DNA from: an uncultured Caldilineales bacterium
GTDB lineage: Bacteria; Chloroflexota; Anaerolineae; J102
Reading direction: 5' to 3'
Length of the DNA: 64,000 nt
NCBI GenBank assembly: GCA_964460135.1
Contig: CAYWPZ010000001.1
Location: 7,469 to 71,468, forward strand
This document shows positions 1 through 11,786 of this stretch, piece after piece. A program made the translations under genes and the position numbers. Below the pieces are notes generated by a model that searched no databases, had not been told where the DNA came from, and saw only the letters and a list, made by a program, of their open reading frames with translations. The stretch's first letter is position 1; each line of letters opens with the position of its first letter.

Positions 1-2026
1 CATCCAGACCGCCTTCATCGACGCCGGCGGCGGCGTATGGTTCGGCGCCAACAATGGCGGCGCCATTCGCGTCGATCCAACCAGTAGACGGATCGACCAC
101 CTGACCAGCGATGACGGTCTCAGCGGCGATAGTGTTTTCGCCATCGCCCAAACGCCCGATGGCGCCATGTGGTTCGGCGTCTATGGCTTTGGCTTGGATC
201 GTTGGGACGGGGAAGATTGGCAGCACTTCAGCCCAGAGGACGGGCTGATCTCCGACAAGGTGCAAGATCTGCTGGCCGATAGCCGCGGCCGGCTTTGGCT
301 CGCAACCGAAGAAGGTGTGTCCATGCTTGAAAACGGGACCTGGCAAAACTTCACCGTCGCGGACGGCCTGGCAGGGCCTGATGTCAACGCCATCTCCGAG
401 GGCCAGGACGGGAGCCTGTGGTTTGCCATCTGGGGCGCAGGCGCCGCCAGGCTGAAGGATGGCGTCTGGACCACCTTCACCCCCCGCGATGGGTTGCTGG
501 CGCCGGGCCTCGACGCTGTTTGGGCCGATCCGAGCAGCGCCCGTGTCTGGTTCGGCACTGTTAGCGGCCTGAGCCAGTTCGATGGCCGCACCTGGCAGAA
601 CTTTAGCGTTGTCAACGGGCTGAACATCGGCCGGGTCAAGGCCTTGCATGCAGATGGCGACCAGGGTCTCTACCTGGGCGTGGCCGAAGGCTTGGCGCAG
701 TTCTCGCCCGACCGCACGCCGCCCGGCATCAGCGTCACCGCCGTCAACGGCGTTGTCCCCGGCGACCAGCGGGCCGAGGCCGCGCCCGGCGACCCCATCC
801 GCATCGACTGGGAAGGCCGCGATCTGCTGACGTCCAGCGAAGAACTCTTCTACCTCTATCGGCTGCTCGGCTACGACGCCGACTGGCAGGCCACGCGACG
901 CCTGCTCGTCACCTATCCGCCTCTGCCCGAGGGCGTCTACACCTTCGAGGTGCAAGCGCGCGACGGTGGGCTGAACTATTCGGCGCCCGCCAGTCTGCAA
1001 CTGATCGTGAAACGCCGCCCGCTGATGATTTGGCTGCCCGTGACCGGTGAGGTGCGAGCAGAAATCGTCTTTGTCATCGTCTCCATCCTCGGCGCCTTGG
1101 CTGCCCTGGGCGCCTATGCCATCTGGAGCACACTGACGCGGCGGGCGATGACACGCCAGGCGGTCGAGCGTCGCTTCAATCCCTATGTCGCCGGCAGCCC
1201 GATCCGCGAAGAGACAATGTTCTACGGCCGCGCCCAAGTCCTGCGCGAAATCGAATCAGCCCTGCACAAGAACAGCGTCATGATCCACGGCGAACGACGC
1301 ATCGGCAAGACATCGTTGCTCTACCAGCTCTTGCAGCGACTGGACGGCAAAGTGGACGGCGGCTACCGCTTCCTGCCCATCTTCGTCGATCTCGAAGGCA
1401 CACCAGAGTCGCAATTCTTCCACCGCCTGATGGAAGCCGCCCTCGATGCCGTGCACCACCAGTTGCCCGAGCTGCCACACAACCAGGACCTCTTCTACTC
1501 GCATCTCGACAGCGGCGAAGCCTACGAAGACCGCTATTTCCGTCGCGATCTGCGCAGCCTCCTCGACCACTTGCGCCAGCATTTCGGCCAACAGCCGCGC
1601 CTCATCCTCCTGCTGGACGAGGCCGACATCATGAACACCTACAACACACTCACCCAACAACAATTCCGCCGCATCCTGCAAGACACGTTTGCCCAAAACG
1701 TGGGCGTCGTCGTGGCCGGCGTCAACATCAGCAAAGCCTGGGATCGGGTCGAGTCGCCGTGGTACAACATGTTCATCGAGATGCAAATGCCCCCCTTCGA
1801 CCGCCCGGAAGCCGAACGCCTGATGCGCGAGCCGGTGGCCAAATTCTACCGCTGGGACAAAGACGCCATCCACTATGTCTTTGCCCAGAGCCAGGGTCGC
1901 CCGCACCGCATCCAACAGATCTGCCTCGAGGCCGTCAACTGCATGCTCGACGAGAAACGTCAGCGCATCCAGATGAGTGATGTCCAACGGGCCTATGAAC
2001 GCATCCTGCAAGCAGAAAAAACCTGA
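1..2026 (+). CDS. 5'-partial sensor protein: two-component-regulator propeller repeats + Y_Y_Y domain, one TM helix, C-terminal AAA+/STAND-type P-loop NTPase
   Basis: Open frame from position 2 with no stop, so the gene starts upstream of the window. The N-terminal part is propeller-like repeats (GxWxGT, DGLxxxxV motifs) ending in a Y_Y_Y-like segment (YLYRLLGYDADWQ). A hydrophobic TM segment (VFVIVSILGALAALGAYAIW) follows, then a Walker A (GERRIGKTSLL) and Walker B (LILLLDEAD). Confidence 0.7.
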   Translation, partial: IQTAFIDAGGGVWFGANNGGAIRVDPTSRRIDHLTSDDGLSGDSVFAIAQTPDGAMWFGVYGFGLDRWDGEDWQHFSPEDGLISDKVQDLLADSRGRLWLATEEGVSMLENGTWQNFTVADGLAGPDVNAISEGQDGSLWFAIWGAGAARLKDGVWTTFTPRDGLLAPGLDAVWADPSSARVWFGTVSGLSQFDGRTWQNFSVVNGLNIGRVKALHADGDQGLYLGVAEGLAQFSPDRTPPGISVTAVNGVVPGDQRAEAAPGDPIRIDWEGRDLLTSSEELFYLYRLLGYDADWQATRRLLVTYPPLPEGVYTFEVQARDGGLNYSAPASLQLIVKRRPLMIWLPVTGEVRAEIVFVIVSILGALAALGAYAIWSTLTRRAMTRQAVERRFNPYVAGSPIREETMFYGRAQVLREIESALHKNSVMIHGERRIGKTSLLYQLLQRLDGKVDGGYRFLPIFVDLEGTPESQFFHRLMEAALDAVHHQLPELPHNQDLFYSHLDSGEAYEDRYFRRDLRSLLDHLRQHFGQQPRLILLLDEADIMNTYNTLTQQQFRRILQDTFAQNVGVVVAGVNISKAWDRVESPWYNMFIEMQMPPFDRPEAERLMREPVAKFYRWDKDAIHYVFAQSQGRPHRIQQICLEAVNCMLDEKRQRIQMSDVQRAYERILQAEKT

Positions 2027-2071
2027 TCCCGCCCTCTCCCCCCCCACCACTCCACACCCCCAGGAGTGCTC

Positions 2072-3397
2072 ATGATGTCTCCTTTCCCCCCTCACAACCC
2101 CTATGTCGTCGGCAGCTGGGTCAATGGCCCCGCCTACTACGGGCACATCGGTCTGCGCTTCAACCTCCTCTACGACCCCAACCGCCAGTTGTGGGTGGTT
2201 GGCACCCGGCGCGTGGGCAAGACCTCGCTACTGCGCCAGCTCATAACCGACGCCGGCCCTGAATTCGTGCCCCTCTACTGGGACATGCAAGCCTGCCAGA
2301 GCGCCGATGACCTGAACAACGAACTGAACTACAGCCTGGAAGAGCGAGCGCCCATCCTGCGCCAAATCGGCGTCGACGTCGACTCGCTGGCCAACCAGGA
2401 CTTCCGCCAGGCGCTCCAGACCGTCTCGCTGGCTGCCGCCGCCCACAACCGCCAGATCCTGCTCCTCATCGACGAACCAGAGGCCCTGCTCACCATTGGC
2501 GACGATCAGGACATGATCCTGCGGCGACTGCGCCTGGTCTTCCAGCGCCAGCCGAACCTGCGCGTGGTGCTCACCTCGACCAAGGTCTTCTCCCGCATCC
2601 AGACGCTCACCCAACACTGGCTCACCTCCTCATTTCTCCAGGACTTCTCCCCCCGCAACCTGTCGAGCATGGAGCCGGTGGAGTCGGAGGCCCTCATCCG
2701 CCAGTCGCAGGGCCAGCGCGTCGATGTCGACGCCAAGACCATCGCCCTCATCCAGCGCCACACCAACCACCACCCCTATCTCGTCCAGTGGCTGTGCCGC
2801 AAGCTCTACCAAGAAAACAACAGCCTGCGCCACCCCGACGAACACGACCTGCAAACCGACGCCACCCTGAACGGCCTGTGGGAGATCACCTACAAACACC
2901 TCTCCCCAAGCGAGCGCTGCATCCTCCTGCACCTGGCGTCCGCTGGCCCCAACCAGACCGAGGACGAAGCCGGATTGGCCGCCGCCCTCCACCTGCGCCC
3001 TTCCGACGCCCATCTCTATCTTTACGCCCTCACTCGCCTGGGGTATACTCGCATCAATGATGGTCAGGTTGGCATTGGCAACACCTTCTTTGCGCAATGG
3101 CTGCAAACCCATGCCGCTTCGCTGCCCATCGACGACGCCGAGATCGCCGATTCGCTGGTCAAAGAAGTAGCTTCGACCGGCCACCAGCAAGAAAAGGCAT
3201 TCTGGCAACAACAATTGCAGATCTTCCGTGTCAATCTGGCCCGGCTTGAGGTCCAGGCCGCCAACTACGGCCTCACCGTCCCGCTCTCCCTCCAAAACGA
3301 GATCGACTTTCACCTGCGCAAGGTCGCCGACTTGGAGGGCCGGCTCGACGGCCTCAACGAAAGCCCCCTCTCCCGTTCGGCTCCGGCGCCCGGATAG
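2072..3397 (+). CDS. AAA+/STAND-type P-loop NTPase with C-terminal coiled coil, paralog of the ATPase domain of the upstream gene
   Basis: ATG at 2072 preceded by AGGAG. Walker A GTRRVGKTSLL, Walker B ILLLIDEPE. The N-terminal motif NPYVVGSWV..YYGHIG parallels NPYVAGSPI..FYGRAQ in the upstream gene. The C-terminus is rich in Q/L heptads. Confidence 0.7.
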   Translation: MMSPFPPHNPYVVGSWVNGPAYYGHIGLRFNLLYDPNRQLWVVGTRRVGKTSLLRQLITDAGPEFVPLYWDMQACQSADDLNNELNYSLEERAPILRQIGVDVDSLANQDFRQALQTVSLAAAAHNRQILLLIDEPEALLTIGDDQDMILRRLRLVFQRQPNLRVVLTSTKVFSRIQTLTQHWLTSSFLQDFSPRNLSSMEPVESEALIRQSQGQRVDVDAKTIALIQRHTNHHPYLVQWLCRKLYQENNSLRHPDEHDLQTDATLNGLWEITYKHLSPSERCILLHLASAGPNQTEDEAGLAAALHLRPSDAHLYLYALTRLGYTRINDGQVGIGNTFFAQWLQTHAASLPIDDAEIADSLVKEVASTGHQQEKAFWQQQLQIFRVNLARLEVQAANYGLTVPLSLQNEIDFHLRKVADLEGRLDGLNESPLSRSAPAPG

Positions 3398-3434
3398 CCG
3401 TCCCCCAAAACGGAATTCAGCGCCCACTCTCTGC

Positions 3435-3470
3435 AAGATGCTGCTCCCCACAGGGCAGCATCTTCATTTG
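3435..3470 (+). terminator. Rho-independent terminator candidate after the NTPase gene
   Basis: 10-bp stem AAGATGCTGC / GCAGCATCTT with a 10-nt loop, followed by CATTT. Confidence 0.5.
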
Positions 3471-3486
3471 CACCACAAGGTTCCTC

Positions 3487-4584
3487 ATGTCCATCCAACT
3501 TGTCGATCTAAAAGCTCAATACGACACCATCCGTCCGGCCATCGACGCCGCCATCACCCGCGTGATCGAAAACACCGCCTTCATCATGGGCAAAGAAGTG
3601 ACAGCTTTCGAACAGGCCTTCGCCGACTATTGCGGCGTCAAACATGCCCTGGGCGTCTCCAGCGGCACCTCGGCCCTGTTCCTCACCCTGGCCGGCTACG
3701 GCATCGGCCCCGGCGACGAAGTCATCACCACTCCCTTCACCTTCTTCGCCACCGGCGAAGCCATCTCGCAGACCGGCGCCCGTCCCGTCTTCGTCGATAT
3801 CGACCCTGTCACCTACAACATCGACCCCGCCCGCATCGAGGCCGCCATTACACCCTACACCAAGGCGATCATGCCCGTGCATCTGTTCGGCCAGCCCGCC
3901 GACATGGATGCCATCGACGCCATCGCCAAACGCCGCCGGCTGTTGCTGATCGAAGACGCCGCCCAGGCCCACGGCAGCCGGTACAAGGGCAAGCGCGCCG
4001 GCAGCCTCAGCGACGCCGCCTGCTTCTCGTTCTACCCCAGCAAGAACCTGGGCTGCTACGGCGATGGCGGCGCCGTCCTCACCGACGACGACCACCTGGC
4101 CGCGCGCGTGCGCTCGCTGCGCGACCATGGCCGCACCACCAAATACGAACACGCCGAACTGGGCTACGGCCACCGACTCGACGGCATTCAGGCCGCCATC
4201 TTGTCGGCCAAACTGCCGCATCTGGACGAGTGGAACGCCGGCCGCCGCCGACTGGCCGCCCGCTATGATGAACTGCTGGCCGATTCGCCGCTTGTCACCC
4301 CCCGCCACCTGAGCGAAACCGAGCCGGTCTATCATTGCTACGTCATCCGCACTGCCCAACGCGACCACTTGCTCAAGACCCTGCACGCCGCCGGGATCGG
4401 CGCCGGCGTCCACTACCCCATCCCCCTCCACCTGCAACCGGCCTACCGCTACCTCGAACTCGAACCCGACAGCTTCCCCATCTCCGAACAGGCCGCCGGC
4501 GAAGTCCTCACCCTCCCGCTCTACGCCGAAATGACCGACGAGCAGCAGGACGAAGTAGTCGCCGCCATCCGGGGCGCAGTCTAG
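3487..4584 (+). CDS. DegT/DnrJ/EryC1/StrS family PLP-dependent sugar aminotransferase
   Basis: Whole-length family resemblance, including the conserved FSFYPSKNLG lysine region and a GDEVITTPFTF block. Confidence 0.88.
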   Translation: MSIQLVDLKAQYDTIRPAIDAAITRVIENTAFIMGKEVTAFEQAFADYCGVKHALGVSSGTSALFLTLAGYGIGPGDEVITTPFTFFATGEAISQTGARPVFVDIDPVTYNIDPARIEAAITPYTKAIMPVHLFGQPADMDAIDAIAKRRRLLLIEDAAQAHGSRYKGKRAGSLSDAACFSFYPSKNLGCYGDGGAVLTDDDHLAARVRSLRDHGRTTKYEHAELGYGHRLDGIQAAILSAKLPHLDEWNAGRRRLAARYDELLADSPLVTPRHLSETEPVYHCYVIRTAQRDHLLKTLHAAGIGAGVHYPIPLHLQPAYRYLELEPDSFPISEQAAGEVLTLPLYAEMTDEQQDEVVAAIRGAV

Positions 4585-4614
4585 AAGTCAAGCACACCGC
4601 GCACGACGCACCCC

Positions 4615-5568
4615 ATGCCCACGCTCTCCGTTCTTATCCCGGCCCACAACGAGGCCGAAAACATCCACGAGCTTGTCGCTCGCACGGCCCAGGCCTTCGC
4701 CGCCCTGGAGGTGGCGGGCGAATTGGTGTTGGTGGACGACGGCAGCACGGACGGGACCGCCGAGCAGGTAGAAACACTTCAAGCCGGTCACCCCTGGTTG
4801 CGGCTGATCCGCCACCGCCGCAACCGGGGTCTCACCGCCGCCCTGCGCTCTGGCTTCCGCGCTGCCCAGGGCGATTACATCCTCTTCCTCCCCGCCGACC
4901 TGGAATCGGACCCGGCCGAGGATGTGCCCAAGCTCTACCACAAACTCCTGGAAGGCTACGACGTGGTTTCGGGCTGGCGACAGGGCCGCGACGATGGCAA
5001 ACAACTGGCTTCCGGCATCTACAACGTTGTCAGCCGGCGTCTGTTCGCGGTGCGCGTCCACGACGCCAACTGGATCAAGGGCTTTCGCCGTGAGGTCATC
5101 GCCGCCCTGCCGCCCTTGCGCTCGGACTGGCACCGCTTCCTGCTTCACATCGCCGCCGACCAGGGCTTTCGGGTGGGAGAGACGCCCACGAACTGGTATC
5201 CGCGCAGGGCCGGGCGCACGCATTTTGGCTTCAGCCGCATCCCCATCTCGCTGCTCGATGTCATCGTCATCCGCTTCTTGCTCACCTTCAGCTCGCGGCC
5301 CATGCGTTTCTTTGGCGGCCTCGGCCTGAGCTCCTTCGCCATCGCCGCTTTCACCACCCTCTTCCTTGCCTACCTCTGGTTCTTCCAGGAACAGACGCAG
5401 AAACGGCCGGTCTTCTGGGCCGCCCTCTTCCTGGCCCTGGCCGGGCTGCTGTTCTTCCTCGTCGGCTTCCTGGCCGAACTCATCGTCGCCCAGGGCGACC
5501 GCCTGAGCGAGTTGGAAGAACGGTTGGCAGAGGTGGATCGGGAGACAGGGGGACGGGGAGACAGGTAG
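4615..5568 (+). CDS. GT2 family polyprenol-phosphate glycosyltransferase (GtrB/ArnC/DPM1-like) with C-terminal TM helices
   Basis: N-terminus LSVLIPAHNEAENI, then a VDDGSTDGT DxD-region, plus two C-terminal hydrophobic helices. Confidence 0.85.
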   Translation: MPTLSVLIPAHNEAENIHELVARTAQAFAALEVAGELVLVDDGSTDGTAEQVETLQAGHPWLRLIRHRRNRGLTAALRSGFRAAQGDYILFLPADLESDPAEDVPKLYHKLLEGYDVVSGWRQGRDDGKQLASGIYNVVSRRLFAVRVHDANWIKGFRREVIAALPPLRSDWHRFLLHIAADQGFRVGETPTNWYPRRAGRTHFGFSRIPISLLDVIVIRFLLTFSSRPMRFFGGLGLSSFAIAAFTTLFLAYLWFFQEQTQKRPVFWAALFLALAGLLFFLVGFLAELIVAQGDRLSELEERLAEVDRETGGRGDR

Positions 5569-5606
5569 ACCGGGAGACCAGTTGCCACTTGCCACCCGCC
5601 ACCCCC

Positions 5607-6824
5607 ATGCGCCTCGGCGTCCTCACCCACAACTACCCGCGCTTCGACGGCGACTTCTCCGGCCATTTCATCCAGCAACTGTGCGAAGAACTGGCCCGGC
5701 AGGGCGACGAGGTGCACGTGCTGGCGCCGTTCGACGCCGCCTACCGGCCCCAAATCCTGGCCGGAGCCAATCCCAAGCTACATCTCTATCGCTATGCCTG
5801 GTCCGATGGCGCCCACAAACTGGGCTATATGCGGACGATGGCGGCCGATATGCAGATGCGGCTGAACACCTACGCCCTCAGCCCGCTGCTCTTCGCCCGC
5901 GGCATCCAGACCACGCTGCGGGTAGCCCGCCAACAGCGGCTGCAATTGCTCCATGCCCACTGGGCTTTGCCCAACGGCTTCATCGCCGCCGTCGTCAGCC
6001 GCCGTCTGCGCCTGCCGTTGGTGGTCAGCATCCCCGGCAGCGATGCCCTGGTGGCGGGGCAGAATCCCCTGTTCCGGCGCATGGCGCGCTTCGCCTTCGC
6101 TCAGGCCGCCCTGATCACCGCCAATGCTGAGGTCTTGGGCGAGGTGGCGGTAGAGGAACTGGGCGCGGACCCGGCCAAATTCGAATTGATCATCTACGGC
6201 GTCGATCCCAACCGGCTGCAGCCTGATCCCACCGGCGTGGCGGCGCTCCGTCAACGCTTGGGCATCCCCGCTGGCGCCTTCGTCTTTCTGGCCGTGGGGC
6301 GCATGGTCTACAAGAAGGGTTTCGACATCCTCTTGCATGCCCTGGCCCAGTTGGGCGAGGCCGGCCAGGGCTGCCATACCATCCTCGTGGGCGAGGGCGA
6401 TCTCTGGCAGGAGTGGCAGGAGCTTGCGCGCACGCTAGGGCTGGCCAACCTGCACTGGGTGGGCAACATCCCCACCGACCAAATGTCCGCCTTCTACAAC
6501 GCCGCCGACGCCCTGGTGATGCCCAATGTGCGCCGGCCGGCCACCGGACTGGGGGTGACGGTGTTGGAGGCCATGGCCTGCGGCAAAGCCATCATCGCCA
6601 GCAACACGGCCGGGAACACCCTGGTGGTAGAGCCGGGCGTCAACGGCCTGATCACCCCCGAAGGCGACGCCCCGGCCCTGGCCGCGGCCATGCTCGATCT
6701 CGCTGGCGACCCTGCCCGCGCCCAACGCCTGGGACAGGCCAGCCGCCATCTGATCGAGACCCGCTTTGGCTGGCCGCACCTCGCCGCCCACTATCGGCAG
6801 CGGTTCCAGGCCATGTTGCCCTGA
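5607..6824 (+). CDS. GT4 (group 1) glycosyltransferase
   Basis: GT-B layout with a C-terminal EX7E-like region (GLGVTVLEAMACGKAIIAS). First in-frame ATG at 5607; the ORF-track start at 5589 is a TTG. Confidence 0.8.
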   Translation: MRLGVLTHNYPRFDGDFSGHFIQQLCEELARQGDEVHVLAPFDAAYRPQILAGANPKLHLYRYAWSDGAHKLGYMRTMAADMQMRLNTYALSPLLFARGIQTTLRVARQQRLQLLHAHWALPNGFIAAVVSRRLRLPLVVSIPGSDALVAGQNPLFRRMARFAFAQAALITANAEVLGEVAVEELGADPAKFELIIYGVDPNRLQPDPTGVAALRQRLGIPAGAFVFLAVGRMVYKKGFDILLHALAQLGEAGQGCHTILVGEGDLWQEWQELARTLGLANLHWVGNIPTDQMSAFYNAADALVMPNVRRPATGLGVTVLEAMACGKAIIASNTAGNTLVVEPGVNGLITPEGDAPALAAAMLDLAGDPARAQRLGQASRHLIETRFGWPHLAAHYRQRFQAMLP

Positions 6825-6959: not shown

Positions 6960-8537
6960 CTATCTCGCCAGCATCACATCCACCGTCGCCAACAGCGTTG
7001 TGCTGTCGGCGGCCGGATTGAAGCTGTAGATGGCAATGCGGCCGGGGCGAGCTGTGCGGGGTTTGCGCAGGCCGAACTTCACCTGCCACTTGCCCTCGGA
7101 GGCCGCCTCATCCGCACTGACGCGGCTGCGCGCCTGCCCCAGCACCGTCCCCGCCAGATCCTCGACCCGCACCAGGATGGTCTCGTCCTTCATCCCCAGC
7201 GCCGTGCCGCTCACCTGCACCGAGCCTCTGAGCGTCGTCCCCGGCGCCGGCGATGCGACGACGACGACCTTGCCCGCGCTTGGCCCGGCCAGGGCCACAT
7301 TCACCCAGGTCAGCAGGGCCAGGCTGCCGTCGGCCGGATTCTCGCTATAGACGGCCACCCGGCCGGGTGCAGCCGTTGGCGGGTCCTGGAAGGGAAGCTC
7401 GACGGCGAAACCGCCCTTTGCGCCCATTTCGGCGGCGTCGATGACCACTGCCACCGCGCCCATAACCTCCCCGGCCTCGGTCTCGACCCGCACGATCACT
7501 TTGTTCTCGAACGCGCCCTCGGCCTCGCCCGCCACCTGCACCCTGCCGCTCAGGGCGGTGCGGGGCAGTGGGCTGAAGATCGCACCCGTGGGACCAAAAG
7601 CGCCGGTCGGGGATGCGTTGGCGGCAGGCGAAGGGACGACAGGGGCGGGTTGGGCGGAAGGGGTGGCGGCCGGGTCAGACGTCTCCACGGGCGGGGGATC
7701 GAGCAGATCGATGCGGCGGGCCAACAGACGCCGGCCGTTGTAGTCGGGCGCGGCAAAACGCAGCTCGCCCCAGACGCGCACCCGGCCCTGATAGTCGGTC
7801 AGGCTTTGCAGCAAAGTCAACACTTCGGCCCGGTTGCTATCGATGCCGTGTTGGTTGCCTCCCTCGCCGGCAAAGTAGTCATCGAACGGCATCCCCGGCG
7901 GCAACTTGACGATGCGCCCCACCCAGCCATCGGCCTGCTGCGAGCGCGGGCGCGGCAGCCGGGCCGAGACGACGGTGACGACGATGCCCTCATCGCCCAC
8001 TTCGCCCCACCAACGCGCGTCGTTGCCGGCGTTGGCCAGGACGGCAGGGCTGACCAGGCGACCATCGACCAGATAGGGGGCGCCGACAACGATCTGCCAG
8101 GGGGTAGCGGCAAAGCCGGCCGCCGCCTGCACCAGTTCGGCCTCCAGCTCAACGTCGGCAGGGGCAAAAGCGGCATTGGCTGGCAGATCCAGCCGGTAAG
8201 CGCCCCGCACGTAGTCCAGGGCGAGGTCACGCACGGCCGCGGGGGCGAGGATGCTGGTAGGCAGGGCGGGCGGGGACGGCTCGGTGGGCGGGACAGGGGC
8301 CGGCCCGGTGATGGCCTGGCTGGCCGTGATCGCCTCGCCGCTCTGCACCAGGGGCAGCGTCAGGGTCGAAACCTGGGTGGAGGTGATGCCGACAGGCGTC
8401 GCCGGCTCGGCGGCAGGGGGCAGGGCAGGCGTCTCGGCGGTGGGCGCCGGAGATCCTGCCGGCAGCGAGCCGACGCAGGCGCTTAGCGCCGCCGCCAGCA
8501 ACACAGCCATGAGGCCAAGCAAGAAAGTGCGTCGCAT
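6960..8537 (-). CDS. Secreted lipoprotein with GerMN-like region and two Gmad2-type Ig-like repeats
   Basis: Signal peptide with lipobox MRRTFLLGLMAVLLAAALSAC. Start ATG at 8537 behind GGGAGG. Two repeated ~90-aa modules (..RVAVYSENPADGSLALLTWVNV / ..RIAIYSFNPAADSTTLLATVDV). Confidence 0.6.
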   Translation of the reverse strand: MRRTFLLGLMAVLLAAALSACVGSLPAGSPAPTAETPALPPAAEPATPVGITSTQVSTLTLPLVQSGEAITASQAITGPAPVPPTEPSPPALPTSILAPAAVRDLALDYVRGAYRLDLPANAAFAPADVELEAELVQAAAGFAATPWQIVVGAPYLVDGRLVSPAVLANAGNDARWWGEVGDEGIVVTVVSARLPRPRSQQADGWVGRIVKLPPGMPFDDYFAGEGGNQHGIDSNRAEVLTLLQSLTDYQGRVRVWGELRFAAPDYNGRRLLARRIDLLDPPPVETSDPAATPSAQPAPVVPSPAANASPTGAFGPTGAIFSPLPRTALSGRVQVAGEAEGAFENKVIVRVETEAGEVMGAVAVVIDAAEMGAKGGFAVELPFQDPPTAAPGRVAVYSENPADGSLALLTWVNVALAGPSAGKVVVVASPAPGTTLRGSVQVSGTALGMKDETILVRVEDLAGTVLGQARSRVSADEAASEGKWQVKFGLRKPRTARPGRIAIYSFNPAADSTTLLATVDVMLAR

Positions 8538-8566
8538 CGTCCGTCCACCGCCTCCCGGTTGCTCCT

Positions 8567-9715
8567 TCATTTAGGGCTCATCGGCATGATCACATGCACG
8601 TACTCTTCCTCGCCCGCCCCCACCGGCCGGATCACGCCCGGACGCGAGGCCGAGATGACCTCGAAGACGACTTCGGGCGTCTCGACGACCGCCAGGACAT
8701 CGATCATGAACTTGGCGTTGAAGGCCGCCTGCACCGATTCGCCCTCCACCAGGGCATCGACTTCGGCTTCGTTGTCGCCCATCTCGCTGCTGGTGGCCGT
8801 GAGGACGATCTTGCCCGGATCGCCGGGAACGATGCTGAGGCGGACGATGTTGGCGGCGTCGCGGGCAAAGAGATACGACAAGCGCATGGCCTTGAGAAAC
8901 TCGGCCGTGTTGACGACGACACGGGTGTTGTAGGAGGTGGGGACGATCTTGTTGTAGTCGGGGAAATTGGCCTCGATCAATTGGCTGACCAGATCGACGC
9001 CAGGCAGATGGAACATGATCTGGTTGCGCGCTTCGGTGATCGTCACCTGCACGCCATCGTCCTCGCCCAAGTCGACGGCGCCGAGGATGCGCGAAAGCTC
9101 GGTCAAGGCCCGCGCCGGCACGATCACCCCCACGGCCGCCGGCGCTGGTTCTTCCAGAAGGGTGGAGCGCACGGCCAGCCGGAAACCATCGGTGGCCACC
9201 AGCCGCAGTCTTTCACCATCCAGTCGGGTGTAGACGCCGGTCAGGGTGGGGCGGCTTTCGTCGCTGGCGGCGGCAAAGGCCACCTGGTCGATCATGCGCC
9301 GAAACTTGTCCGGCGGCAATTCGGTGGCCGGCAGGCCGGTCTCGCGGCGATGGGTGGGGATGATCGGGAACTCGGAGGCGTCGATACCTTTGATGTTGGC
9401 CTCGTTGCGGGCGCAGCGCAGGTGCAGCGTCTGGGTGCGCACATTCAATTCCATATCGATCCGCTCCTTGGGGAGCGACGCAACGAAATCGCTGAGCAAG
9501 CGCGCCGGCACCGTGATCGCACCCTCCTCCTCGATCATCGCCCCGATCCAGCAGTTGATCCCAATCTCCATGTTCATGGCCGAGAGTTTGAGCTGCGATT
9601 GATCGGTTTCGAGCAGAATGTTGCTCAGGACCGGCAAGGTGCTGCGTGTGGCCACGGCGCGGGCAACGATGGCGAGTCCTTTGGCCAAGTTTTCTTGCAA
9701 AACTGAAATGCGCAC
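8567..9715 (-). CDS. dnaN: DNA polymerase III beta subunit (sliding clamp)
   Basis: Full-length DnaN similarity (N-terminus RISVLQENLAKGL.., three-domain length ~382 aa). GTG start at 9715 with GGAGGT 7 nt upstream. Confidence 0.9.
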   Translation of the reverse strand: MRISVLQENLAKGLAIVARAVATRSTLPVLSNILLETDQSQLKLSAMNMEIGINCWIGAMIEEEGAITVPARLLSDFVASLPKERIDMELNVRTQTLHLRCARNEANIKGIDASEFPIIPTHRRETGLPATELPPDKFRRMIDQVAFAAASDESRPTLTGVYTRLDGERLRLVATDGFRLAVRSTLLEEPAPAAVGVIVPARALTELSRILGAVDLGEDDGVQVTITEARNQIMFHLPGVDLVSQLIEANFPDYNKIVPTSYNTRVVVNTAEFLKAMRLSYLFARDAANIVRLSIVPGDPGKIVLTATSSEMGDNEAEVDALVEGESVQAAFNAKFMIDVLAVVETPEVVFEVISASRPGVIRPVGAGEEEYVHVIMPMSPK

Positions 9716-10424
9716 GGAATGACCTCCGAACAAAAACGATGAAGGGGATAAGGAAGCCCGACAAAAGAGAGAATCAGTATACCAAAGCCACGCACAAACC
9801 GGGAAATGGCCGCTGAACTCTTGCGGTGTCATCGGCGTCAGCCAGCCATCGTTCGCACCTGATCAGGCGATGTTAACATCTCCTAACCCTGACCTTAAAA
9901 CCTATGCTCGTTCATTTCTCCTCCGGCAATGGCCTCGGTCGGGCTATTTTGTGCCAGCGCGCCCCGCAGCCACTAATGCTAGGCCCCGTTTGGACGCCCG
10001 CCTTTCGTGCCTGCCTTGTGCTTGACGATAACAAGGGGTGGCTGAGCCAAAGCCTCACGGTGCGAATCATTGCGCCGGGCCGTCCCCTCTGCTATGATCC
10101 CGCCTACGTCCGGTCAGACAAGTGTCTTCGTTCCCTGGCGAAAGAACCGGCCGGCGCAGGCGCACAACCGCTGCGTGCAGGCGTGTTGGCAGCAGCAAGC
10201 GGCAGGCGCCAGTAACAGGCGCCCCCCTCGATTGAACATAATCTGTGGCTACGGCCGAATCCAAACCGATTCAGGCTGCCAGCCGCCGGTCGCGTGTTGC
10301 CTGATCACGGTCGCCATCCTCCCCCACCTTCTCCCGGCCCCCGCCGGACCCTTTCGCCCCCCCTGGCCCACTCATTTTGGAGCGCATCTTTTCGCCTCTC
10401 CAGGCAACCTCAGGACTTGCCATC

Positions 10425-11786
10425 ATGGATCTCTCTCAACGTCCAGAAACCATTTGGCAAGCCGTGTTAGGCGAACTGCAACTTTCTTTGCAACGACCCG
10501 TTTTCGACAACTGGCTGCGCGATACGCAAGCGATTGCCTATGAAGATGGCTGCTTCATCATCGCCGCCAAGAGCGCGTTTGCCCAGGCATGGCTGGAGCA
10601 ACGCATGAAGGGCATGCTCAAGCAACGTTTGCAGCGTCTGTGTGGGCGTTCGGTCGATCTGCGCGTTGTTGTGCGCGCTGACCCTGCGCCCGCGCCCGAC
10701 CAGAACACCGACGAGCCGCCGCTCTTGCAGCCTCAGACCGATGGGGGTCGCTATCGCAGTCCGGCGCCGGTGTCTGCTTCTTCGCTCAACACCGCCATGA
10801 CCTTCGACAGCTTCATCGTCGGCAGCGGCAATCATTTCGCCTATGCCGCGGCCCAGGCTGTCGGTCAGGAACCCGGCAACCGCTACAACCCTCTTTTTCT
10901 CTATGGCGGCGTCGGCCTGGGCAAGACCCACTTGCTTCACGCCATCGGCAACCATGCCGCCCGCGCGGGCTATGCCTCTCGCTATGTCACGGCCGAGACC
11001 TTCACCAACGATCTGATCGAGGCGATACGCACCAAATCGAATGTTGCCTTTCGGCAACAATACCGTGAAGTCGATATCCTCCTCATCGATGATGTCCAGT
11101 TCATCGAAGGCAAACCAAGCACTCAAACCGAAGTCTTTCATACCTTCAACACCCTTTACGCCACCAACAAACAGTTGGTCATCGCCAGCGACCGACCGCC
11201 GCAATCCTTCCCGCAGTTCGACGATCGCTTGCGCTCTCGTTTTGCCGGCGGTCTGACCGTCGACCTGCAGCCGCCCGACCTTGAGCTGCGCGCTGCCATT
11301 CTGCGCGACAAAGCGTTCGGGATGGGTGTGAGCATTGCCGACGATGTCCTTCGCTTCATTGCCGAGCAGAACCGCAGCAACGTGCGCGAATTGCAGGGCG
11401 CCCTCAACCGCGTCGTCGCCTTTGCCCGCCTGGTGCTGCGGCCCATCGATCTCTCGCTGGCGCAAGAAACGCTCAGCGAAAACGATGTCTGTCTCAACCG
11501 CGATCCGCAGTCGGTCTTGCAGGCGGTGGCGAGTGAGTTTCGCGTGGCCCCGGGCGAGCTAACCGGCCCCCGACGCTCATACAACATCGTCGTGCCTCGC
11601 CAGGCGGCGATGTACCTGATGCGCGAGGTCTGCCAGCTCTCCTTCCCCCAGATCGGCGAATTCCTGGGCGGTCGCGACCACACGACCGCCATGCACGGCT
11701 GCGAAAAGATGGCGCAACGATTGGACGAAGACGCCGAGCTCCGCAGTCGCCTCGAACGGGTGCGGATGCGCCTGCGACAATCGTAA
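10425..11786 (+). CDS. dnaA: Chromosomal replication initiator DnaA
   Basis: AAA+ Walker A GGVGLGKTHLLHAIGN, sensor motifs, and a C-terminal DNA-binding domain (..PQIGEFLGGRDHTTAMHGCEKM). ATG at 10425. Confidence 0.95.
   Translation: MDLSQRPETIWQAVLGELQLSLQRPVFDNWLRDTQAIAYEDGCFIIAAKSAFAQAWLEQRMKGMLKQRLQRLCGRSVDLRVVVRADPAPAPDQNTDEPPLLQPQTDGGRYRSPAPVSASSLNTAMTFDSFIVGSGNHFAYAAAQAVGQEPGNRYNPLFLYGGVGLGKTHLLHAIGNHAARAGYASRYVTAETFTNDLIEAIRTKSNVAFRQQYREVDILLIDDVQFIEGKPSTQTEVFHTFNTLYATNKQLVIASDRPPQSFPQFDDRLRSRFAGGLTVDLQPPDLELRAAILRDKAFGMGVSIADDVLRFIAEQNRSNVRELQGALNRVVAFARLVLRPIDLSLAQETLSENDVCLNRDPQSVLQAVASEFRVAPGELTGPRRSYNIVVPRQAAMYLMREVCQLSFPQIGEFLGGRDHTTAMHGCEKMAQRLDEDAELRSRLERVRMRLRQS

Follow-up and report, generated by a model that had tools for sequence, protein, structure and literature searches.

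A transmembrane propeller sensor and a soluble partner with paralogous STAND-like ATPases: a candidate two-protein signalling module in Caldilineales

Introduction

Several families of nucleotide-binding proteins, among them ORC/Cdc6, NB-ARC, CED-4 and those of the MalT type, act by nucleotide-dependent oligomerisation. Among the systems closest to the one described here, NAIP and NLRC4 are documented to form a hetero-complex (PMC9975940), and a scissor-like movement has been reported as the signalling mode of the ectodomain of BT4663, a hybrid two-component system (HTCS) sensor of Bacteroides (PMC8534201, citing Lowe et al. 2012). Here we analyse a pair of adjacent genes at the start of a 64,000-nt stretch of DNA (hereafter the window) from an uncultured Caldilineales bacterium (Chloroflexota; GenBank assembly GCA_964460135.1, contig CAYWPZ010000001.1, positions 7,469 to 71,468 of the forward strand). 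Gene 1 encodes a single-pass membrane protein with an HTCS-like ectodomain and a cytoplasmic ATPase in the place of a histidine kinase, and gene 2 encodes a soluble protein with a paralogous ATPase. We consider it somewhat probable that the two form a two-protein transmembrane signalling module.

We found no published description of this pair in searches that included Kaur et al. 2020/2021 and the 2026 Nature survey of STAND proteins and that had subscription journals outside their coverage. The nearest item in the literature names "transmembrane STAND ATPases" in passing, as sensors fused to proteases (bioRxiv 10.1101/2025.11.14.688446), and "System 4" of Kaur 2020 (EACC1 plus caspase; PMC7159879) is a different two-gene membrane system. 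Current annotations of the genes in question say only "AAA family ATPase", "tetratricopeptide repeat protein" or "two-component regulator propeller domain-containing protein". The pair belongs with the STAND/AAA+ signalling NTPases of modular sensors and effectors, as an apparently undescribed variant.

Results

Gene 1 encodes a transmembrane sensor that ends in an ATPase

Gene 1 (2..2026, stop codon at 2024–2026; like all features of the pair, on the + strand) is an open frame that runs off the start of the window, in which the C-terminal 674 of its 1058 codons and the stop are present. An initial annotation, made from the letters of the window, had noted that the upstream part lies outside; we recovered these first 384 codons from an identical metagenome contig (L001, JGI Ga0394875_0005558), and they add a signal-like segment and the rest of the propeller. 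The full product (P0001, 1058 aa) begins with a hydrophobic signal-like segment at residues 5–25, followed by AQAQ, and continues with about 700 aa of propeller and Y_Y_Y domain ahead of a transmembrane helix at about residues 738–761; these two are the only hydrophobic segments found in a hydropathy scan.

Within the window, the second half of the extracytoplasmic region is a beta-propeller of Reg_prop repeats (2..832; Pfam E 4.7e-14 on the 674-aa fragment and 2.3e-31 on P0001), and it is followed by a membrane-proximal, Ig-like Y_Y_Y domain (833..1012, fragment residues 278–337; E 1.7e-11 on the fragment and 1.8e-11 on P0001). The ectodomain is homologous to the periplasmic structures of Bacteroides thetaiotaomicron HTCS proteins (4A2L/BT4663, phmmer E 2e-35; also 3V9F and 3OTT). 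The single transmembrane helix (AEIVFVIVSILGALAALGAYAIW, 1058..1126) is directly followed by a basic, Arg-rich stretch, TLTRRAMTRQAVERR, and AlphaFold models transmembrane and juxtamembrane segments as one continuous helix (residues 15–52 of the modelled fragment). Because of the signal-like segment, the single transmembrane helix and the Arg run after it, the propellers are predicted to lie outside the cell and the ATPase inside.

The cytoplasmic part (1178..2023) is predicted by AlphaFold to adopt an AAA+ fold, STAND-like in character, with a nucleotide-binding domain and a helical lid, after which the chain ends without a winged-helix domain. Its motifs are NPYVAGSP at 1178–1201 (NPYVAGSP...MFYGR, 1178–1231), a Walker A motif, GERRIGKTS, at 1289–1315, a Walker B motif, LILLLDEAD, at 1601–1627, SPWYNMF at 1754–1774 and GRPHRIQQ at 1895–1918; the G-K-T of Walker A and the D-E of Walker B are invariant across 45 gene 1 homologues (family A3). 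On the fragment, Pfam assigns AAA_16 (35.2 bits, cut-off 32.6) and AAA_22 (34.4, cut-off 27), while nSTAND1 is borderline (27.3 bits for the fragment, 26.2 for full-length P0001, cut-off 27.1) and NACHT stays well below its cut-off (14.8 vs 26.7). ATPase_2 (Arch_ATPase, PF01637) scores 25.9 bits on gene 1 and 24.3 on gene 2, both below the gathering threshold of 33.2, and members of that family (2qen, 2fna) are the nearest structures to the ATPase fold of both proteins. The gene 1 fragment has no Pfam match to HisKA, HATPase_c, a receiver domain or an AraC-type HTH even at E 0.1, and in NCBIfam no family reaches its cut-off on gene 1 and none matches gene 2.

Much of this had been read from the letters alone: the GERRIGKTSLL, LLLDEAD and NPYVxGS...YG motifs and the single transmembrane helix of the initial annotation are all present where it placed them, and both hydropathy and AlphaFold show the helix. 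Its suggestion that a P-loop NTPase of the STAND/AAA type stands where an HTCS-type sensor would have its histidine kinase output is borne out by the match to 4A2L and by domain searches that find Reg_prop, Y_Y_Y and AAA_16 and no HATPase_c domain.

Gene 2 encodes a soluble paralogue with a complete STAND-like core

Gene 2 (2072..3397) is complete and encodes a soluble protein of 441 aa. It starts after a spacing of 45 nt from the gene 1 stop codon, and its start call agrees on three independent metagenome contigs; its closest genomic relatives, at 62–64% identity, are in metagenome-assembled genomes (MAGs) of Caldilineales/Chloroflexota. The AlphaFold model (predicted local distance difference test, pLDDT, 92.9) together with the family alignment and fold comparison divides it into a nucleotide-binding domain plus helical domain (2072..2857), a winged-helix domain (residues 264–350, 2861..3121) that completes the core, and a C-terminal helical hairpin or coiled coil (residues 360–429, 3149..3358). 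The hairpin consists of two long helices, 360–398 and 405–429, with pLDDT above 90, and these account for the Q/L-rich coiled coil of the initial annotation. Here the motifs are NPYVVGSW at 2096–2119 (then ...YYGH), Walker A GTRRVGKTS at 2201–2227, Walker B ILLLIDEPE at 2456–2482, TSSFLQDF at 2624–2647 and HHPYLVQW at 2768–2791, with G-K-T and D-E again invariant, across 39 gene 2 homologues (family A1).

By structure comparison, the core of nucleotide-binding, helical and winged-helix domains is closest to PAB2304 and SSO1545, then to NB-ARC, CED-4 and ORC/Cdc6, aligning over 310 residues to 2qen and over about 270 to NB-ARC/CED-4; none of the STAND-family Pfam models nSTAND1, NACHT and NB-ARC matches gene 2. 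Of the two proteins, gene 2 alone has the entire core that typifies STAND proteins, and gene 1 has just the nucleotide-binding domain and lid. Since the winged helix is kept even in relatives with explicit DNA-binding domains, it is probably a part of the NTPase core rather than an output. The hairpin, by contrast, sits in the output position, where relatives bear kinase, TIR, cyclase, CHAT, sigma or helix-turn-helix (HTH) domains, and the simplest guess is that it recruits another protein.

The initial annotation had also described gene 2 as paralogous to the gene 1 NTPase, and here pairwise and profile methods agree: in BLASTP the two ATPases align along some 260 residues with an identity of 22% (E 1e-8), and profile–profile comparison (hhalign) does so over 247 columns with a probability of 99.9% (E 7e-31). 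Common to both are an NPYxxG...F/YG(R/H) lead-in, an RRxGKTS P-loop and an hhhhDE Walker B motif, and there are equivalent SPW/SPF and (R/H)PxxxQ motifs. Proteins of the gene 1 type score 318–433 bits on a gene 1 profile vs 59–114 on a gene 2 profile, and those of the gene 2 type in which most of the module is covered score about 190–560 bits on the gene 2 profile vs 26–90 on the gene 1 profile (truncated open reading frames, ORFs, have lower scores). By these sequence comparisons, the two modules are paralogues that form two cleanly separated types.

The pair is conserved in Chloroflexota

The counts of paired loci given here and below come from pattern-based scans, each of 80 loci, and hold among the loci listed. 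In the first set, 80 genome loci with a gene 2 homologue, all from Chloroflexota, were searched by tblastn for gene 1. A gene 1 homologue with both propeller and ATPase lies upstream on the same strand in 69 of the 80, within 300 nt of gene 2 in 56 of those 69. Among the relatives with the pair are, going by their MAG labels, Litorilinea aerophila (L052), Caldilinea species (L044, L051, L059, L070) and Ca. Amarolinea. One of the 11 exceptions lacks upstream sequence, and the other ten are a single clade (L014–L024). The 64-kb window itself holds no second copy, so that the pair occurs once.

The members of that clade are marine, and in them (e.g. L020, 3928–11272) unrelated secreted proteins precede gene 2. 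The gene 1 homologues that we matched to the clade by divergence adjoin a gene for an Rce1-like CPBP protease (L166/L167).

Sensors and outputs are exchanged in other phyla

Pairs of the two ATPase types recur in Abditibacteriota, Isosphaerales and Acidobacteriota-type loci, and two of these involve distant gene 1 homologues. In an Abditibacteriota locus (L084, AP024152; 8001–13638), the partner of a Reg_prop–transmembrane–ATPase sensor lies 1 nt past the stop of the sensor gene and combines the gene 2 module with guanylate-cyclase and TIR domains, and in an Isosphaerales MAG (L085; 8001–13525) the partner of a sensor of the same build is the gene 2 module plus CHAT. Stop and start codons of sensor and partner overlap in L085 (11279–11282) and in L168 (5760–5763). 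L084 and L085 are loci in which cell-death-type outputs would be wired to an extracellular sensor.

A second set, of 80 metagenome loci, was gathered by alignment of gene 1-type ATPase domains only, and its ORFs, which were called mechanically and may in some cases have wrong starts, were scored with two separate profiles. A gene 2-type gene lies immediately downstream, often overlapping, in 46 of these loci, a divergent one lies upstream in 16, and the remaining 18 have no gene 2-type partner, most of them with a flank ended by the contig end. Together with the Chloroflexota loci, these pairings in other phyla uphold the view of the initial annotation that the two genes form a module, against which a pair that is not conserved elsewhere would have spoken.

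In most of the metagenome sensors, the propeller is replaced by a tetratricopeptide repeat (TPR) domain, placed between an N-terminal hydrophobic (signal or transmembrane) segment and the transmembrane helix. Such sensors occur in MAGs of Acidobacteriota/Holophagae, where they are annotated as "tetratricopeptide repeat protein", and their partners carry a C-terminal Ser/Thr kinase, a kinase plus an extracytoplasmic function (ECF) sigma factor, an N-terminal OmpR-type Trans_reg_C domain (often with C-terminal transmembrane helices) or transmembrane helices only. Targeted look-ups added an ECF-sigma partner that overlaps its TPR sensor (L168) and a LuxR/GerE partner directly after a Reg_prop sensor (L170/L171).

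Several arrangements depart from a simple tandem pair. In four metagenome loci (L106, L115, L120, L162), the sensor is followed by a couple of gene 2-type genes, of which the second has an N-terminal Trans_reg_C domain, so that three ATPases stand together. In eight others (L090, L092, L093, L101, L126, L131, L155, L165), a divergent partner on the minus strand upstream of the sensor consists of Trans_reg_C, the gene 2 module and 2–3 predicted C-terminal transmembrane helices; by analogy with the logic of ToxR and CadC, these look like membrane-anchored STAND-like transcription regulators. A 1135-aa ORF in L138 (809–4213) joins N-terminal DEAD/Helicase_C domains, TPRs, a transmembrane helix and a gene 1-type ATPase, and may be either a genuine fusion or two genes that the ORF caller ran together.

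A profile of the gene 2 module retrieves 519 clusters (50% identity) at E < 1e-30. In the 71 longest relatives out of the top 150, the domains joined to the module are Pkinase (17), Trans_reg_C (9), TIR_2 (8), sigma r4 (5), Trypsin_2 (4), FHA (3), SIR2_2 (3), bDLD1 (3), CHAT (2) and PNP_UDP_1 (2).

Neighbouring genes and an intergenic hairpin

Downstream of gene 2, also on the + strand, lie genes for a PseC/ArnB-like DegT-family aminotransferase (3487–4584), a family 2 glycosyltransferase (GT2) with C-terminal transmembrane helices (4615–5568) and a family 4 glycosyltransferase (GT4; 5589–6824), which closes a three-gene sugar cluster (3487–6824). Over its full length, the GT2 protein aligns with the polyprenyl-phosphate sugar transferases PgfS and ArnC, and the DegT protein has alignments to PseC and ArnB; none of the three reaches an NCBIfam equivalog cut-off. 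Enzymes of the ArnB/PseC and ArnC/PgfS types make polyprenyl-phosphate amino sugars. In 45 of the 69 Chloroflexota loci that could be tested for it, a DegT aminotransferase gene follows gene 2 at a distance of no more than 700 nt, usually with a GT2 gene next, and many Caldilineaceae loci have the pair without degT. Across many Caldilineales genomes, the pair stands in conserved synteny with degT, the GT2 gene and dnaN/dnaA.

Beyond the sugar genes, a gene on the − strand (6960–8570, 535 aa) encodes a protein with a signal- or lipoprotein-like N-terminus, a Pro/Ala-rich linker and two Ig-like Gmad2 domains, for which NCBIfam gives no match. It is followed by dnaN (8567–9832, − strand) and dnaA (about 10425–11786, + strand, mapped from L001 11646–13007), which are divergently transcribed with about 600–700 nt between them. 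This order differs from the usual, co-directional dnaA–dnaN arrangement, and the region between the two genes is a candidate replication origin.

The spacer between gene 2 and degT contains an RNA hairpin with a short T-run (3432..3472, + strand; fold −20.7 kcal/mol, z −3.7), whose GC-rich stem of 10–12 bp (AAGATGCTGC...GCAGCATCTT) is followed by CATTTG. A stem of GATGCTGC/GCAGCATC is found at the same place in seven related loci (L004–L007, L010, L011 and L018), and L012 and L018 show compensatory or G-U changes. As such changes match what is expected of a terminator, the hairpin is probably the intrinsic terminator of a gene 1–gene 2 transcription unit; it may also be an operator or attenuator, since the stem sequence is conserved beyond what is usual for terminators. 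A consensus promoter and terminator scan gave one promoter-like and two terminator-like sites, no more than in shuffled sequences. We had considered a single operon of the pair with degT, GT2 and GT4, an idea that the conserved hairpin with its T-run after gene 2 weakens.

Since the sensor is of a glycan type and the neighbours resemble amino-sugar enzymes, an envelope-glycan connection of the pair to the DegT–GT2(–GT4) genes is plausible. We nevertheless rank the sugar genes as a candidate target, outside the module proper, because the hairpin separates gene 2 from degT and many loci lack degT.

Discussion

A proposed mechanism

Gene 1 is a sensor without an output, gene 2 has an output position and no sensor, and the two types persist side by side while sensor and output domains are exchanged. 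What we propose about contact between the two proteins, the direction in which a signal passes, its ligand and its target we infer from this architecture and from gene context. Gene 1 would be the receptor, its signal peptide exporting a double-propeller plus Y_Y_Y ectodomain of the type that binds oligosaccharides in Bacteroides HTCS proteins, and its transmembrane and long juxtamembrane helix would couple that ectodomain to an ATPase whose Walker A and B motifs are intact. Ligand binding outside could alter the spacing or oligomeric state of the receptor ATPase domains, which would then nucleate, or release, an ATP-dependent assembly with gene 2 protomers; that assembly would gather the partner's output domains and so activate them by induced proximity. 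For the sigma and HTH variants, sequestration and release may be an alternative to proximity. The scissor movement of BT4663 is said to draw the membrane-proximal ends of that protein together, and a closing of this kind would suit proximity-driven assembly of the ATPases. At the Caldilineales locus, the input would most likely be an extracellular glycan and the output either protein recruitment by the coiled coil or control of the neighbouring envelope-sugar genes, this last step being the least certain.

Several observations weigh against a signalling module of this kind. Gene 2 of the window has no enzymatic or DNA-binding output recognisable by Pfam or AlphaFold, just the conserved hairpin, and the gene 1 ATPase lacks the winged helix used in STAND oligomers, so the geometry of an assembly may differ from that of NLR-type rings. 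In clade L014–L024, gene 2 lies beside degT and the gene 1 homologue, as judged by divergence, is elsewhere (L166/L167), and in Ca. Amarolinea and some others a gene for a pyridoxal phosphate (PLP) enzyme on the opposite strand lies between genes 1 and 2; because of these two cases, strict operon linkage of the pair is not obligatory. Some relatives of the gene 2 type are solo, for example P0224, which is fused to DUF8371.

The P0224 gene (L172, 5001–10163) lies beside genes for a DUF2779 protein and an OLD-family nuclease (AAA_15/AAA_21 plus TOPRIM), a context that resembles a defence island and includes no sensor gene.

Alternative explanations

The initial annotation had left the choice between signalling and defence open, and an anti-phage or conflict system of the STAND/Avs type, in which the receptor senses an invader cue and the partner triggers death or dormancy by abortive infection, is an alternative that we regard as unlikely here. 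For it speak the conflict effectors among gene 2 relatives (TIR_2, SIR2_2, bDLD1, CHAT, Trypsin_2 and PNP_UDP_1 in the census above); the cyclase–TIR partner of L084 and the CHAT partner of L085 directly follow gene 1-type sensors. The hosts are filamentous Chloroflexota, and we count this for defence because multicellular bacteria are reported to be enriched for NTP-dependent conflict systems (Kaur et al. 2020, PMC7159879). PADLOC adds weak matches to PDC-S27 and PDC-S01, which span just 40–50 residues around the P-loop at E 1e-5 or weaker. A known defence system was sought in PADLOC-DB v2 and rejected, there being no full-length match (PDC-S27/PDC-S01 at E 1.6e-5 or weaker, P-loop only). About half of the family's fused outputs, moreover, are regulatory (kinase, OmpR-type or LuxR HTH, sigma factor, FHA), gene 2 of the window bears a helical hairpin and no effector domain, and the synteny with degT, the GT2 gene and dnaN/dnaA in many Caldilineales speaks for vertical inheritance rather than a variable defence island. 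The sensor also points out of the cell, whereas the Avs/STAND sensors that have been characterised recognise phage proteins inside it (PMC13581612). Given this synteny, the outward sensor, the regulatory outputs and the lack of a toxic effector, housekeeping signalling, possibly glycan sensing, fits the locus better than phage defence; of the two options offered initially, signalling is the one favoured at this locus, and defence-type effectors (TIR, CHAT, SIR2) occur in some distant relatives.

We give a similarly low chance to the reading that the pair, in the manner of ExeA/GspA, is an ATPase for envelope assembly or quality control that works with the adjacent sugar genes; its propeller would bind the cell's own surface glycan, and its ATPases would scaffold or energise the synthesis or export of that glycan instead of relaying a signal. 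The frequent DegT gene just downstream, mostly followed by a GT2 gene, the alignments of these proteins to PseC/ArnB and PgfS/ArnC (all below equivalog cut-offs) and the clade L014–L024, in which gene 2 has remained with degT despite a relocated gene 1, all point this way. So does a weak NCBIfam match of gene 1 to an XrtA/PEP-CTERM-associated ATPase (E 0.0037), which at 16.7 bits is far under its cut-off of 324.5. Set against these are the conserved terminator-like hairpin between gene 2 and degT, the many Caldilineaceae pairs without degT and the loci outside Chloroflexota, which have no such neighbours and whose partners bear signalling outputs.

Less likely again is that the pair is an old tandem duplication whose products work independently, adjacency being history rather than partnership. 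The genes are indeed paralogous, are unlinked in some lineages and have solo relatives of the gene 2 type; yet ATPases that have diverged to about 22% identity stay adjacent in at least four phylum-level groups amid swaps of sensor and output, stop and start codons frequently overlap (as in L085 and L168), and the sensor-only gene 1 and output-only gene 2 are complementary. Finally, a conventional sensor kinase with a divergent HATPase_c-type domain, which the HTCS-type ectodomain of gene 1 might bring to mind, was rejected and has next to no chance of being right, as the cytoplasmic fold is AAA+ and no HisKA, HATPase_c or receiver match appears at E 0.1.

Significance

Looking beyond this locus, we tentatively suggest that signalling pairs of this kind may be a widespread, unrecognised class of transmembrane signalling, apart from histidine kinases, Ser/Thr kinases, chemoreceptors and anti-sigma cascades, a broader idea that we hold less firmly than the one about the locus itself. 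In such a class, a propeller/Y_Y_Y or TPR sensor would drive the ATP-dependent co-assembly of its AAA+ domain with a STAND-like partner of swappable output, and the class might be a membrane-spanning bacterial counterpart, by analogy, of sensor/helper NLR pairs, serving regulation as well as cell-death responses.

If this is true, bacteria would have a modular receptor that works across the membrane by nucleotide-dependent assembly of two paralogous ATPases and not by phosphotransfer. It would join classical signal transduction, with its Bacteroides glycan sensor domain and its kinase, sigma and HTH outputs, to STAND/NLR-type immunity, with which it would have the ATPase fold and the TIR, CHAT and SIR2 outputs in common, and would offer a genetically simple prokaryotic model of a sensor NTPase that activates a helper NTPase. 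It would place more than 500 partner-module clusters (at 50% identity), along with sensor genes in their many hundreds, in a functional setting.

Comparison with known systems

With the Bacteroides HTCS proteins (BT4663; 4A2L/4A2M, 3V9F, 3OTT), gene 1 shares a homologous Reg_prop double propeller plus Y_Y_Y domain (E 2e-35 to 4e-18) with a transmembrane helix after it, and its sensor is presumably, like theirs, glycan-binding and dimeric and passes a conformational change through the membrane (PMC8534201). Unlike them, gene 1 has an AAA+/STAND-like ATPase in place of HisKA, HATPase_c, receiver and AraC domains, the output of the pair is on a second protein, and the hosts are Chloroflexota and not Bacteroidota.

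The nearest fold is that of PAB2304 (2QEN) and SSO1545 (2FNA), members of Pfam ATPase_2/Arch_ATPase, for which the window proteins nevertheless fall below the Pfam cut-off; the two archaeal proteins, which have no known function, are soluble and stand alone. ExeA/GspA resembles gene 1 in being a single-pass protein with a cytoplasmic AAA_22-type ATPase and an extracytoplasmic domain that binds a polymer, peptidoglycan. In ExeA, however, the ATPase is N-terminal, the opposite polarity, and the outer domain is a peptidoglycan-binding one rather than a propeller or TPR domain; the protein that ExeA works with, ExeB, is not an ATPase paralogous to it, and the role of ExeA is secretin assembly rather than signalling.

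STAND NTPases (MalT, AfsR/SARP-LAL, Avs, NLR/NB-ARC, CED-4/Apaf-1) unite effector, nucleotide-binding oligomerisation domain and sensor repeats on a single soluble chain. The pair resembles them in the P-loop nucleotide-binding domain with Walker A and B motifs of both genes; the core goes on to helical and winged-helix domains in gene 2 and ends after the lid in gene 1. The pair differs in that the sensor is extracytoplasmic and is carried by another protein, in the membrane, with an NTPase of its own that lacks a winged helix. The logic that we propose is closest to that of NAIP–NLRC4 and of plant sensor NLRs with their NRC helpers, in which a sensing paralogue without an executing domain activates an output paralogue. 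This likeness is one of analogy, with no close sequence relationship, and in the bacterial pair the sensor would be a transmembrane receptor.

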